From Promethearchaeota archaeon (GTDB lineage: Archaea; Asgardarchaeota; Thorarchaeia; Thorarchaeales; Thorarchaeaceae): 31,891 nucleotides of DNA. Where the stretch lies: positions 1 through 31,891 of the forward strand of contig WJMJ01000050.1 in the NCBI GenBank assembly GCA_014728035.1, in the 5' to 3' direction. The translations under genes and the position numbers were made by a program. The first letter of the stretch is position 1. Each line of letters begins with the position of its first letter. The notes under the pieces are model-generated. The model saw only the letters and a program-made list of their open reading frames with translations. It had not been told where the DNA came from and ran no database searches. Below, one piece after another: positions 1 through 31,891 of this stretch.

Positions 1-139
1 AGGAGTTTATATGGAGTGATCTGGAATAGAGATTTGGTCTACAGACACAGGATCCCTGACCAGGACCGAGCCAGTTCCAGTACCGTTTCTGGACGGACAA
101 AGCTCGGGTGTCTAAGTTTGTCCAACTAAAAATGAACGG
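1..139 (+). mobile_element. Right end of an IS607-family element (partial, runs off window start)
   Basis: TGTCTAAGTTTGTCCA (109-124) is a 15/16 reverse-complement match to TGGACAAAGTTAGACA (29394-29409) just upstream of the IS607 tnpA. The segment ends in GG (138-139), the IS607 crossover dinucleotide, exactly where an LLM-like reading frame becomes recognisable. Confidence 0.7.
60..139 (+). ncRNA. Candidate 3' part of a TnpB omega-RNA (reRNA) scaffold
   Basis: Hairpins TCCAG(76-80)/CTGGA(89-93) and GGACAAA(95-101)/TTTGTCC(117-123). CCGAGC(66-71) is complementary to GCTCGG(102-107) in the loop of the second hairpin, giving a pseudoknot. Position at an IS607 right end fits. Transcription is inferred only. 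Confidence 0.4.
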
Positions 140-286
140 TCTCCTGGCGATGTCATCGAAAGATTGGCCGCATACAGAGATTATGTGGATGTAGTGAATA
201 TTTGTCTTCCAATCATTGGAAATCCTAGAGATAACGGTCTCGAAACCATTCGCATTTTATCTGAACAGATAATACAACATCTATAG
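140..286 (+). pseudogene. C-terminal fragment of a luciferase-like (LLM-class flavin/F420-dependent) oxidoreductase, cut by the IS
   Basis: Frame 2 reads SPGDVIERLAAYRDYVDVVNICLPIIGNPRDNGLETIRILSEQIIQHL*. This matches the typical LLM C-terminus (G[ST]P..V.E.L..Y...VD.......L..I..L.E.IIP). No start codon; upstream is IS sequence. Confidence 0.65.
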
Positions 287-15621: not shown

Positions 15622-15839
15622 TTATCTATTGAGATATAATTGCTCACAATATAAATGATATCATATACTATTGATTTCTGTAAACGCAAGGGTAATAAAA
15701 TTGAGATAGAATAAGTGAAATAAAATCATAACTGAGCTAAGATATCATAGTAACAAATTGTGACCATAATTTGTGTGTCCGCTTTATATACCCAGTTTCA
15801 TCAGATAATAGTGAATCACATGTTCAAAAGGTGAACACA

Positions 15840-17075
15840 ATGGCGGAAAAATACAAAAACGAATCAAGACTCGAGCTAGGTCCAATAGAAGGAGACCTCG
15901 AGTTAGATAACGTTGAAAGAATCTATCCCAAAGAGGGAGAAGAGATTGTTGTCAACGGAAAAATCAGAATAAAAGGTGAAACCGAGTTCGAAGGAACTCT
16001 CAAAGCACATAGCATAGAAGTCAGAAGTAGAGACCGTTTAACAATCCATGGAGACCTCGTTCTACAAGGTGATGCACTAGTCAAGAAAGGTAGTCTCGTT
16101 GTCAATGGCTCTGCAACAGGACGTCTGTTTGACGTTGGAGGCAGTTTCAGCGTTAGAGAAAACCTAGAATGTGAAGCAGCCCGAGGTGGTGGATCTGTTA
16201 AGGTTGAAGGTAATGCAACTGCTCAACGAATCATGGGCGGAGGCTCTGTAAAGATACAAGGGGATGCCAAGGTAGCTAGACTTCAAGGTGGAGGCTCAGT
16301 TAAAGTGGGCAGACTAGTTACAACAGATGAACTCAGTGCAGGCGGCTCTGGAAAAGTAAACCAAGGTGAAATCGGAAAGGTCGAGGTCGGAGGTAGTTTC
16401 AAATCGACCGGTCCTGTTGTAGTTGAAGATATTGATGTTGGTGGGTCAGTAAAGCTAGCTGGTGGATCCAAGGTAGAAGCTGTAGATGTTGGTGGGTCCT
16501 TCAAGACAGATGGAGACCTCGAATTTGGCGACATCGACGTCGGTGGAACTGTAAAGATATCTGGAACAGCAAAAGGTAAGACAATTGATGTTGGTGGAAC
16601 TGTCGTAATCGGTGGAACCCTACATCTCGAAAACATCGAAGTCGGTGGAAAAGTGGAAGTTGACGAAGACCTTCACTGTACAAGGAAGATTAAAGTTGGC
16701 GGAACTGTTAGCGTTGGCGGACGAATCAACACATTCAGGATTGTTGTTGGAGGGCGTATCGAGGCCAAATATATCAAAGCCAGCGATGGATTTCGAATTG
16801 GAAAGAGAGCAGAAGTCACAGGAAATGTGGAATCTGGTGAGATTCTTATCAGAGAACGTGCTCGAACCAAATCATTGTATGGCGACGATATAAGAATTGA
16901 AGAACGTGCTCGCGTTGGAGCAATCTATGGACGAACCATTTACATTGAGCGAGATGCAATTGTAGAGGGTGAAGTTCTCTATACAGAAACTCTTGATGCT
17001 GAGCATGATGTAAAGTTTCGAGTCGAACCAAAAAAGGTCGACCAACTACCACCACCAGAACAAGTACTAGAATAA
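15840..17075 (+). CDS. Large bactofilin-like (polymer-forming cytoskeletal) beta-helix protein
   Basis: Start ATG 15840. About 16-17-aa repeats xIxVGG[ST]VKx across most of ~411 aa. C-terminal IYGRTIYIERDAIVEGEVLY. TTTATATA box at ~15783. Confidence 0.8.
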   Translation: MAEKYKNESRLELGPIEGDLELDNVERIYPKEGEEIVVNGKIRIKGETEFEGTLKAHSIEVRSRDRLTIHGDLVLQGDALVKKGSLVVNGSATGRLFDVGGSFSVRENLECEAARGGGSVKVEGNATAQRIMGGGSVKIQGDAKVARLQGGGSVKVGRLVTTDELSAGGSGKVNQGEIGKVEVGGSFKSTGPVVVEDIDVGGSVKLAGGSKVEAVDVGGSFKTDGDLEFGDIDVGGTVKISGTAKGKTIDVGGTVVIGGTLHLENIEVGGKVEVDEDLHCTRKIKVGGTVSVGGRINTFRIVVGGRIEAKYIKASDGFRIGKRAEVTGNVESGEILIRERARTKSLYGDDIRIEERARVGAIYGRTIYIERDAIVEGEVLYTETLDAEHDVKFRVEPKKVDQLPPPEQVLE

Positions 17076-29160: not shown

Positions 29161-29320
29161 AAGAAATCTCTCCACTCTAGTAGAGTCCTGAACAATGATA
29201 TAGCTTTGGGAGTATTATTGTCAAGACCTATCAAAGTGATACAGTACTTCGTTCTGTTATCGATGGTGTTACGAGCTCGTAGCACAACTAAGAAGGTCTG
29301 TAATGCCATTTCTAGTCTGA

Positions 29321-29371
29321 TTGAAACCTGTTCTATTTTCAGGCGTTTTTGATAAAATGACGTTTATGGGG
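29321..29371 (+). pseudogene. Short upstream half of the interrupted LLM fragment (joins 140-286)
   Basis: LKPVLFSGVFDKMTFMG ends at the GGGG of the IS left junction and continues in frame as SPGDVIERL at position 140. Confidence 0.45.
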
Positions 29372-29438
29372 TGACGAACTGATACGAAATATCTGGACAA
29401 AGTTAGACATTGAATAGGTGGAAGTCTGTAGTGGAAGT

Positions 29439-30032
29439 ATGTTTTCGGTATCGATCGCCGCAGCTCGTCTTGGCGTATGCACCAAGACCATTCGAAGATG
29501 GGATAAACAGGGGCTGATAGAATGTTATCGAACTCCTGGCAACCATCGTCGCATCCCCCTCAGAGAGATAGCTCGGATCAAACATGGAACCACCCACGAG
29601 AAGGTCCTTCCAGCGCATCCAGCAGTCTATGCAAGAGTGTCCAGTCACCGACAGAAGGCGGCTGGAGATCTGGCTCGGCAGGTGGAGGAACTCTGTCACC
29701 ACTGTCCAACATCACCCAGAGTCTTCAAGGATGTGGGCTCGGGTCTCAATATGCAACGAAGAGGACTATGGAGGTTACTCACCGAGGCCAAGAAGGGAAC
29801 CATCACCTCGGTCTACATCACCCATCGCGATAGACTGGCTCGTTTTGGCACAGAGCTGGTAGAGTACATCCTCACCATCTTTGGCGTCACGGTACATCGT
29901 CTTTATGAGACCGAGGACAAGACCCCTCAGGAGGAGATCGTCTCGGACCTCATGGCCATCATAGCCTCTTTCTCCGGCCGGGTCTATGGTCTTCGTGGAG
30001 CTCTACTTCGTTCCCGTCGAACGAATCAATGA
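29439..30032 (+). CDS. tnpA: IS607-family serine-recombinase transposase
   Basis: N-terminal MerR-type HTH (LGVCTKTIRRWD..G.I...RTPGNHRR), catalytic YARVSS..QK..DL.RQ, DVGSGLN, DRLARFG, DLMAIIASFSGRVYGLR. Confidence 0.95.
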   Translation: MFSVSIAAARLGVCTKTIRRWDKQGLIECYRTPGNHRRIPLREIARIKHGTTHEKVLPAHPAVYARVSSHRQKAAGDLARQVEELCHHCPTSPRVFKDVGSGLNMQRRGLWRLLTEAKKGTITSVYITHRDRLARFGTELVEYILTIFGVTVHRLYETEDKTPQEEIVSDLMAIIASFSGRVYGLRGALLRSRRTNQ

Positions 30033-31714
30033 CTGATCGTGAACTTCTTCCTCTGAAGATACTGGCATGTCCGAGAGAACGAAAGGATATTCTTTGGAAA
30101 TATCACCAGATCAGCATTATTGATGACCACTTGTGTGGAATACATTCGATGTGACGATGTGTCAATGAACTGCATGCTCTCAAAGATTTCAGCAACCTCG
30201 ATGATGGTAAGGTCTATCTCTTGTAACGTTCTCATTTTTGGTGAGAGATCAGGAGTGAGAAAGAGAATGTTCCAACAGCGGGAATGGGGATGTTTCCACC
30301 TTGACAGGTCGGGGTCAGCAACGAGGGTGATGGATGGGCCATGACTCATTCTCAGTAGATCTTCTGCTGTAAGGGGGAGAGTGTATCTACTAAGATATGG
30401 GGATGCTTGACGATTTCGGTAGGTAAAGGGGCTGAGAAAGGTCAGAGAGACCGGACCGTGAGTAGTAGTGACCTCTTCATAGCTCACGTCTGTATCAAGG
30501 ACCCACCAATAGCGGTTCTCAAAGGGATGGCCTGTCGTCTGCGGGCTTCGGAGAGTCTGAATAACATCAAGGGTATTCAGATAGTGAAGGGTCTGGAGGG
30601 GAGTCTTGTCACTATCTCCTCCAGTCACACGAAAGAATTGTACCATATAGCTGGAGGTCACATCGTCGAGCGTGACTCTGCATCTTACATGGATAACACC
30701 CTCGGTCAATGAACTTAGAGAGGAGAGAGTTTTTCGCACAATATGCTGAAATGCGTTCTCGTGCAGGTTGATCTCTGGGGGACTTAAGTTCGAGACCAGT
30801 GCAGACGGAATACGTTTGTATCGAACCCATCTGATGGGAGCAGTTTCACCATGTGTAGGTCTACCATACTCGAAGATTCCCACGGGCCACCAACTCTCAA
30901 TGGTATCACCATCTTGCTGTGGACGCCACAGTACCAGATGTTCTCCCACTGGTTGGATAACGAGGGGAATACTCTGATTCCATGATATCGTACTCCATTC
31001 CTTCAACTCAAAGGGACTGGTCTCACAGGGATACCAGCCTCGTTGAAAGAGCGAGTCCTCGGAGCGATGGATCAGACCTGCAATAATCTCTGTTCTAGTA
31101 TGAGGTGACTGAAAGACTAACCAGTGATGGTCGCTCCCTACATCGATCATCAGTGCTTGGAGCATATCTGTCTCTTCCATAGCAGGGGACTCAGGGAGCT
31201 GGGCCACTCGCCATTGTAGATTTGTCCAGATGAACCAGAGATCATATTTTGACACGACTTCTTCCGCGATAGGTTCTTGGCCGAATCCAATATGGACCAA
31301 GATCCAGTCCGAGAAGGCCAGCCAGAGGACTCGCAGACTATCCTGTACCAAGAGCGTTTCACAGTCTCGTTGGAGCGCCAGAAGGAGGAGATAGAGGTAG
31401 TTTCCATACAGGAGTCCAATCTCATGATCTTCTTGCTCAAGCTTCGCGACCAAGGTCGATACTTCAGGTAGCAATGAATCTGAATGAAGTGCATTCTGTC
31501 GGATAGAACGTATCAATCGCCAGAAGTCTTTCGACTCTTTGTCTTGCCTCAATACGGTGCGGATTCGGTCCAATACGCTACCGGGTTCAGCTGTTCCTCC
31601 GTGAGCTTTGATACACGTGGTACAGAGGTCGATGATACGGTCCAAGAACCCAATCCAGTCGTGTTCATACTGCGGAGCAGCTCTCTTGAGGAGTAGTGCC
31701 GCCTGTCGAATCCG
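30026..31714 (-). CDS. Large hypothetical protein, probably an N-terminally truncated fragment carried inside the element
   Basis: Frame open for 562 codons from 31714. First start codon is TTG 31645. Helical N-part, beta-rich C-part, no recognisable motif. All three minus frames are closed further upstream. Confidence 0.6.
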   Translation of the reverse strand, partial: RIRQAALLLKRAAPQYEHDWIGFLDRIIDLCTTCIKAHGGTAEPGSVLDRIRTVLRQDKESKDFWRLIRSIRQNALHSDSLLPEVSTLVAKLEQEDHEIGLLYGNYLYLLLLALQRDCETLLVQDSLRVLWLAFSDWILVHIGFGQEPIAEEVVSKYDLWFIWTNLQWRVAQLPESPAMEETDMLQALMIDVGSDHHWLVFQSPHTRTEIIAGLIHRSEDSLFQRGWYPCETSPFELKEWSTISWNQSIPLVIQPVGEHLVLWRPQQDGDTIESWWPVGIFEYGRPTHGETAPIRWVRYKRIPSALVSNLSPPEINLHENAFQHIVRKTLSSLSSLTEGVIHVRCRVTLDDVTSSYMVQFFRVTGGDSDKTPLQTLHYLNTLDVIQTLRSPQTTGHPFENRYWWVLDTDVSYEEVTTTHGPVSLTFLSPFTYRNRQASPYLSRYTLPLTAEDLLRMSHGPSITLVADPDLSRWKHPHSRCWNILFLTPDLSPKMRTLQEIDLTIIEVAEIFESMQFIDTSSHRMYSTQVVINNADLVIFPKNILSFSRTCQYLQRKKFTISH

Positions 31715-31891
31715 TCACTATCTCAAACATAACCAGCCGGTGATGAGTAAGGCCTCAGGTCTGGTCCGAGACTGGCTAGAACACGGATATCCCTTCGAGA
31801 TTCCCCTGATGAAGAGCTTTGTCACGGATTACTCAGGTTCTACAGAGAACTCACCTGGGCAGGGGTACTGGTACTCCTGGGATACTGAGAG
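31713..31891 (+). CDS. Partial coding segment co-oriented with tnpA (possible internal piece of a TnpB-like protein)
   Basis: Open to the window end: RHYLKHNQPVMSKASGLVRDWLEHGYPFEIPLMKSFVTDYSGSTENSPGQGYWYSWDTE. TnpB identity is inferred from position only. Confidence 0.4.

Follow-up and report, generated by a model that had tools for sequence, protein, structure and literature searches.

A gene-less IS607-type mini-element of Thorarchaeota predicted to act as a standalone guide-RNA gene for a TnpB nuclease encoded elsewhere in the genome

Guide RNAs that move without a gene of their own have precedents. The standalone omega-RNAs (Altae-Tran 2021, as summarized in PMC10691335) and the PATEs of the IS200/IS605 family (10.1101/2023.03.14.532601) are mobile, gene-less and multi-copy, share a scaffold with a distant effector and take the guide from their flank. 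According to PMC10691335, it is not known what the standalone omega-RNAs do for the cell or the element. In the IS607 TnpB reRNAs of ISXfa1 (PMC10711439), CboIStron (10.1101/2023.11.20.567912) and ISFba1/RAGATH-18 (PMC11061315), a pseudoknot joins a loop to the 3' end beside the guide and the junction base belongs to the scaffold; the target motif equals the predicted TAM, from which the element's own end differs by one base. In the first two, this junction base is invariant and the TAM equals the transposase target. Cas1H-Asgard-1 and -2 place tnpB beside a giant Cas1-fold gene in an Asgard archaeon, and downstream of tnpB a conserved T precedes a hypervariable stretch (PMC10691335). Finally, Pro-Fanzor and Fanzor2 combine an association with IS607 TnpA and a terminal pseudoknot (PMC10711439). 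These likenesses recur, in part as predictions, at the locus described here.

The window, by which we mean the whole 31,891-nt stretch analysed (WJMJ01000050.1), is an entire contig (C16) of a Thorarchaeota genome, and its position 1 is an assembly break. The initial annotation had recognized an Asgard host, which is correct, and had read positions 1-160 as an IS607 right end. The family assignment stands, but the structure is neither the 3' end of a tnpB gene nor the end of the window's tnpA element. Positions 1-140 (forward strand) are the right 140 nt of a standalone, gene-less 190-bp mini-element with a TATA-like box, whose left-end 50 nt were lost at the contig start. Collecting copies by BLAST, as had been proposed, gives 52 matches in the genome with the full unit, corresponding to about 35 loci. 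Internal copies define a unit of 190 bp that starts with GGGT, ends with CGGT and has no ORF. Among the pieces at 96% identity or more, 3 are whole, 15 left-only and 13 right-only; since an assembler is expected to break at a 190-bp repeat, it is not surprising that many contigs hold only the left part or the right 140 nt. The same 50-nt left end is found in every copy that reaches upstream of window position 1, which identifies 1-140 as the right part of a mini-element and separates it from the tnpA element, which lies 29 kb away and does not end here. No tnpB coding sequence is contained in 1-75. The terminal GG reported at 138-139 is present, yet conservation among copies extends to T140 and the boundary lies there, not at 139. 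Beyond it the flank begins sharply: over its first 8 positions the commonest base never accounts for more than 12 of 27.

The mini-element has neither an effector nor a transposase gene, is multi-copy and has its probable effector encoded elsewhere in the genome. It has multiplied recently in this genome. Related units of 185-195 bp occur in many genomes of the host's family, and the named relatives are Thorarchaeota. The RNA covariance model matched the host's own family only, with none of 71 genomes from other Asgard families giving a match. Rfam offered nothing meaningful for the stretch (single match, E 5.6).

Positions 140-286 (forward strand) encode the C-terminal 48 codons of the interrupted host gene, which is about 340 aa long in relatives; the same-genus orthologue is 64% identical. 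The first 190 residues of its product are encoded on contig C38, which likewise ends in a mini-element. Mini-elements thus interrupt this oxidoreductase-like gene twice, near residue 190 on C38 and near residue 299 in the window, and its middle is absent from the assembly. Either there were two insertions 325 bp apart and a small contig was dropped, or the DNA between two copies was deleted.

An archaeal BRE/TATA-like box at 2-12 (forward strand; TATA at 6-12) forms a conserved island in 52 copies and is followed by a stretch, 13-33, that varies freely. The first helix begins 29-31 nt after the box in 47 of the 52 copies. At tnpB-linked ends, no TATA-like box is found at a comparable distance. 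We infer a transcription start near 35-36 and an RNA of about 105 nt through T140.

The fold of this RNA was deduced from covariation counts in 52 distinct copies from 14 genomes, averaging 70% column identity, a set whose kinship inflates the covariation figures. Neither single sequences nor the alignment yielded this structure when folded computationally, and with z = +0.35 the fold energy of 1-160 does not stand out from that of shuffles. In five helices taken together, 95.7% of the cells are paired (90.4 in shuffles, 32-46% in slid controls), and cells changed on both sides number 81 as against 21 in shuffles. The 5' stem P1 (35-39 with 58-62; feature 35-62) gives a best stem of 5.96 bp with its own partner and 4.93 with swapped partners (maximum 5.38, 300 swaps). 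Its loop, at 44-48, forms a long-range pseudoknot helix with 108-112, paired in 95% of the cells; pair 48/108, for instance, is CG in 35 copies, UA in 13, GC in 2 and UG in 2. The 6-bp pairing of 66-71 with 102-107, already noticed in the initial annotation, is the best-supported helix and covaries strongly across the 52 copies and 14 genomes (97% paired, two-sided changes in 4 of 6 pairs; pair 67/106 is AU 24, GC 19, GU 5, CG 3, UA 1). It stacks on 44-48/108-112.

The 5-bp hairpin at 76-93, also seen at the outset, holds in the copies; it is nexus-like and common to the 3' ends of tnpB genes. Its loop, 82-88, pairs with 134-140 as a terminal pseudoknot. This pairing is nearly invariant among mini-elements and covaries in 29 tnpB-linked ends (168 of 203 cells Watson-Crick, 147 in shuffles, maximum 161 in 20000). 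As judged from the sequences, it is the canonical TnpB-RNA pseudoknot, directly before the predicted guide; in TnpB RNAs this pseudoknot is reported to be both conserved and required. The least supported helix is the second hairpin, 95-123. Its 7-bp stem, 95-101/117-123, had been described and is present in the window, but only 95-100/118-123 holds in the copies (92% paired, with one clear compensatory pair, GC 44 and UA 5); pair 101/117 forms in just 19 of 52, and pair 97/121 is broken in one lineage. This stem overlaps the probable TnpA motifs (see below).

The mini-element covariance model also detects tnpB ends. The hairpin and pseudoknot are common to the mini-element and the 3' end of a Thorarchaeota-specific gene for a TnpB of about 715 aa, and the scaffold is of the omega-RNA type. 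The proposal of a pseudoknotted omega-RNA was right as to type, although it lacked the TnpB-defining helix 82-88/134-140 and two further helices. No clear counterpart of the three 5' helices (P1, 44-48/108-112 and 66-71/102-107) is seen in the tnpB-linked ends, and they might serve another purpose. A P1-like stem in the HADxNA codons of tnpB (19 of 35 Watson-Crick, 8.8 in shuffles) was noted post hoc among related sequences and is not relied on. Long-range pairing between the tnpB leader and the 3' linker was considered and rejected, cognate and non-cognate pairs both giving -12.2 kcal/mol.

The probable partner of this RNA is a 712-aa TnpB (counted from the first Met) encoded on contig C25, where a left end, a truncated tnpA, the intact tnpB and a right end follow one another. 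The right end is 83% identical to window 76-140, so that an intact, RuvC-bearing copy with the same end, as had been anticipated, does exist. TnpB homologues of 710-735 aa are present in 32 of 60 genomes of the host's family and in 0 of 40 others searched, a distribution that matches that of the RNA model. Residues D487, E596 and D691 and four zinc cysteines are invariant among the homologues (RuvC D-E-D and zinc finger intact), and the structural model of the protein matches Cas12f and TnpB structures. The RuvC-I motif is D-R-G in all homologues that cover the site, as opposed to D-P-G in Pro-Fanzors, and the RuvC-II glutamate occupies its canonical position 58 residues before the zinc finger, as opposed to 6. 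On both counts by which PMC10711439 recognizes pro-Fanzors, this TnpB falls outside that lineage, and the link to Fanzors suggested earlier must be given up.

Two relatives whose genomes are 97-98% complete have 31-38 RNA-model matches while only fragments of tnpB were assembled, which indicates that an intact nuclease gene is not needed for copies to survive, for some time at least. Contigs C128 and C123 (loci L001 and L003) carry two other TnpB-like frames, of 489 and 558 aa, whose ends do not fit the RNA model. Two genomes (G038 and G013) hold many short pieces left over from the last 30-60 codons of tnpB; these probably represent another class of short derivative, one in which the coding 3' end is kept.

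The tnpB genes themselves provide a means of calibrating the guide start. A second covarying hairpin lies within the first codons of 22 of 24 tnpB genes, followed downstream by a 7-bp covarying pseudoknot partner and then by a 12-nt guide (examples are L012:1501-3654 on the minus strand and L016:1501-3642 on the plus strand). These 12 nt match the promoter region of the same element about 80 nt upstream, at 11 or more of 12 positions in 20 of 24 genes and in 1 of 240 shuffles. The match starts at the first base past the pseudoknot strand. The targets read TG(G/A/T)T, with T at -1 in 22 of 23 and G at -3 in 20 of 23, while the last base of the leader scaffold is usually C. That the target has T at -1 even though the scaffold mostly ends in C assigns T140, by homology, to the scaffold, begins the guide at 141 and makes the TAM end in G-x-T. 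The guide start at 140 and the TAM ending in GG, put forward in the initial annotation, are most likely to be replaced by 141 and GGGT, the -4 base of this predicted TAM being provisional. The predicted guide thus occupies 141-160 (forward strand) in the host flank, for which PMC10711439 provides a precedent. The leader arrangement suggests that the core scaffold is the hairpin plus pseudoknot, about 65 nt, and that the 5' helices of the mini-element are an addition. A leader guide aimed at its own divergent promoter would probably serve autorepression. The C25 copy and one same-genus copy retain the leader guide, the target having been lost by deletion. For the guides of the mini-elements, no other near-perfect targets were found genome-wide.

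The mini-element has no terminal inverted repeats; short motifs lie inside both ends in inverted orientation. Two subterminal repeats of this kind lie at 109-125 (forward strand), in the opposite orientation to those of the left end; by analogy with PMC6188088 they are probable TnpA binding sites. The 15/16 inverted match on which the initial reading drew is real: 109-124 matches 29394-29409, and in the window's tnpA element these positions are 25-40 nt in from the left end. The chance expectation for such 16-mer inverted matches is about 0.045, and an unrelated 15/16 direct match is also present. The motifs listed at the outset are weak alone; it is the copy number and the covariation that make the element real.

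The sequence GGT is common to both junctions (138-140, forward strand, from comparison of copies and junctions); it includes the crossover core, and its T140 is the last scaffold base. Both GG (138-139) and GT (139-140) are compatible as crossover dinucleotide with the shared GGT. When the flanks of two same-genus copies are joined, a gapless match to orthologous genes is obtained only with GGGT. Likewise, two split contigs of this genome, a pair picked by eye, rejoin as one long reading frame only with GGGT, and at the window flank GGGT yields Gly-Ser-Pro where orthologues have Gly-Pro/Thr-Pro. Left and right contig pieces were matched through orthologues from relatives; paralogues within the genome gave no information. 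The empty site is N-GGGT-N, with no target duplication beyond the shared GGT, and a shared core without further duplication is also what is found in IS607 (PMC6188088). Complete elements that carry an IS607 TnpA, a serine recombinase with an N-terminal HTH, share the left and right ends of the mini-element (L173, L174 and L175). It appears, then, that the mini-element is a non-autonomous IS607-family derivative, and mobilization by TnpA is predicted.

Complete parents are 8-8.7 kb long. Between their left and right ends they carry tnpA, then a giant gene in the opposite orientation, and beyond a divergent promoter tnpB. The ORF after tnpA, which the initial annotation had proposed to identify, is the giant Cas1-fold gene, and tnpB comes after it. 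Window 29369-31891 is an internally deleted parent. Its left end (29369-29410, forward strand; GGGT plus two motifs) was assigned by comparison of ends, and TGGGG does stand at the left junction, at 29367-29371, as reported. An IS607 TnpA serine recombinase follows at 29418-30032 (forward strand; NF033518, 167 bits, cut-off 110); this tnpA is the only full-length one found in the assembly, and the assembly's only resolvase-family match. It probably mobilizes the mini-element in trans. The C-terminal third of the giant gene (1570-1880 aa) lies at 30026-31714 on the reverse strand, as seen by comparison with complete parents, and a tnpB fragment (residues 263-329, 67% identical to the intact C25 copy) at 31689-31889 on the forward strand is cut by the contig end.

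In sequence searches of Pfam, NCBIfam and PDB the giant protein found nothing, and Foldseek matches were weak (best E 0.012). Its N-terminal domain has a Cas1 fold according to VIA-align (Z 12.8, rmsd 4.2, 179 aligned), and the top 12 VIA-align matches of the protein are Cas1 or casposase. This fold links the loci to the aCas1-TnpB groups of PMC10691335. Some parent copies are without tnpA; the giant gene is always present. In this assembly the giant gene occurs only as fragments matching its C-terminal part.

Around window 29308-29371 the left end of the parent lies in a CRISPR leader, and one degenerate repeat stands some 46 nt away from it. The arrays on contigs C36 and C143 have leaders with 85% identity to this one. 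Here, then, a TnpB element adjoins a CRISPR leader, but no array is left on the window contig. Four genomes have a fixed giant gene and tnpB locus in common (L178:503(-), L183:10905(+), L184:2535(-), L185:2043(-)), with decayed end motifs and neither tnpA nor a left end that could be found. Its conserved flank is similar to the beginning of the tRNA-Lys gene next to it, in which this sequence comes after GGGC. The locus could be a relic insertion into a tRNA gene or, alternatively, hold a tRNA-directed guide. Other observations concern the genome at large (G000). Contig C26, with nineteen tRNA genes of sequences unlike the host's other tRNAs, is possibly a virus or other mobile element. On contigs C51 and C151 ARAGORN reports a CUA-anticodon tRNA, whose 5' end resembles tRNA-Arg(TCT) on C25, and a tRNA-Sec; the CUA call may represent a mutated Arg tRNA or a suppressor. 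Window 15771-17075 holds a 434-aa ORF with 51-nt periodic repeats, by eye of a polymer-forming or beta-helix type.

We propose, with a probability of roughly 0.7, that the mini-element is a non-autonomous 190-bp IS607 derivative acting as a standalone guide-RNA gene, its function being predicted from sequence comparisons. The TnpA encoded at 29418-30032 would excise and integrate the mini-element in trans, and each copy would be transcribed from about 35 through T140 into its flank. The C25 TnpB would load the RNA of a copy and cut the scarless GGGT-flank joint left by excision, and repair from an occupied chromosome copy would restore the element. Cutting and repair of the joint are modelled on CboIStron (10.1101/2023.11.20.567912), where TCGG and TGGG differ in the same manner; the C of the element's own CGGT end would block self-cleavage. 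As to origin, the mini-element could have come from an 8-9 kb parent through two deletions, of which one brought the left end up to the tnpB promoter and the other took out the tnpB ORF. The tnpB promoter and the mini-element have identical TATA-to-GAGG spacing, which makes these deletions a simple origin. The extra 5' helices would then stand in for the missing mRNA context.

A wider scheme, which we regard as speculative, has the TnpB of about 715 aa served by three classes of RNA built on one core of about 65 nt: the right-end guide, a promoter-parked leader guide within the first 30 codons, and dozens of promoter-bearing mobile guides with an added double-pseudoknot 5' domain. The mobile guides would protect insertions and compete for the enzyme, their copy number tuning expression of the Cas1-like and transposase genes.

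Competition alone has also been considered. If the RNA is made and binds TnpB mainly as a decoy, it would titrate the enzyme off the leader guide at its own promoter and raise expression of the mobility genes. The leader scaffold and its 12-nt promoter match do suggest repression by binding, and the mini-element guides have no other near-perfect genomic targets. Yet the guide position, the target motif and the CGGT/GGGT difference fit cutting of the donor joint, and the leader guide's target is deleted in this genome; a decoy role is improbable. Slightly less probable still is a plain MITE, of which nothing but the DNA ends would count, the RNA structure being left over from the parent or an effect of transposase sites. 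Subterminal motifs account for 95-125, genomes without intact tnpB bear many copies, and the fold z-score is +0.35. However, the spacer 13-33 drifts, whereas conservation with compensatory changes is seen for the TATA box, for its spacing and for three helices that tnpB ends lack, and DNA-binding motifs do not predict long-range compensatory pairs.

That the giant Cas1-fold protein rather than TnpA moves the mini-element is unlikely. The parent always has the giant gene, with some copies lacking tnpA, and aCas1 has been proposed as a transposase (PMC10691335); against this, the ends resemble those of IS607 in lacking a terminal inverted repeat and a conventional target duplication and in having a G-rich core, and the assembly retains a full tnpA but only C-terminal fragments of the giant gene, despite a recent burst of copies. 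Least probable is the initial reading, in which 1-139 is the right end of the window's full tnpA-tnpB element, the guide begins with T140 and the TAM has GG as its last bases. The contig start does hide the upstream sequence, and a GG crossover core at 138-139 is possible at the DNA level; but 1-75 is not tnpB coding, the 50-nt left end stands before these positions in every other copy, T140 is paired within the pseudoknot and the calibrated guide begins after it, and the window's tnpB fragment ends at residue 329.

Taken as a standalone guide-RNA gene, the mini-element has the PATEs (10.1101/2023.03.14.532601) and standalone omega-RNAs (PMC10691335) as precedents for mobile guide RNAs. It differs from both in its IS607 serine-recombinase ends, archaeal host, internal TATA-like promoter and three-helix 5' domain lacking in effector-linked ends. 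Standalone omega-RNA elements were already known; here the fold, guide start and target motif can be predicted in testable detail. Compared with the IS607 reRNA systems, the target is GGGT, not TGGG, AGGAG or GAGGG, the core scaffold is only about 65 nt, the TnpB has about 715 aa instead of about 390, and there is no intron. Unlike Cas1H-Asgard-1/-2 as described, several complete copies here also have an IS607 tnpA and IS607-type ends; mini-elements and a leader guide are not part of that description (PMC10691335). The downstream GTTCACTCA motif of the Cas1H-Asgard groups was not found after right ends at 15 loci, although the motif may concern only one of the two groups. A literature search of incomplete coverage returned no paper with both Thorarchae- and TnpB. 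The present analysis corrects the boundary and the TAM with an internal calibration, counts covariation over five helices and rejects the link to Fanzors; it has no bearing on Fanzor origins.

One genome thus supplies an intact nuclease, a transposase and some 35 naturally occurring guide genes, for which a likely promoter, a covarying fold and a calibrated guide start and TAM are at hand. If the proposal is true, this TnpB uses a dispersed, self-expanding library of guides with an unusually small core scaffold, which would represent a functional step towards CRISPR-like multi-guide systems.
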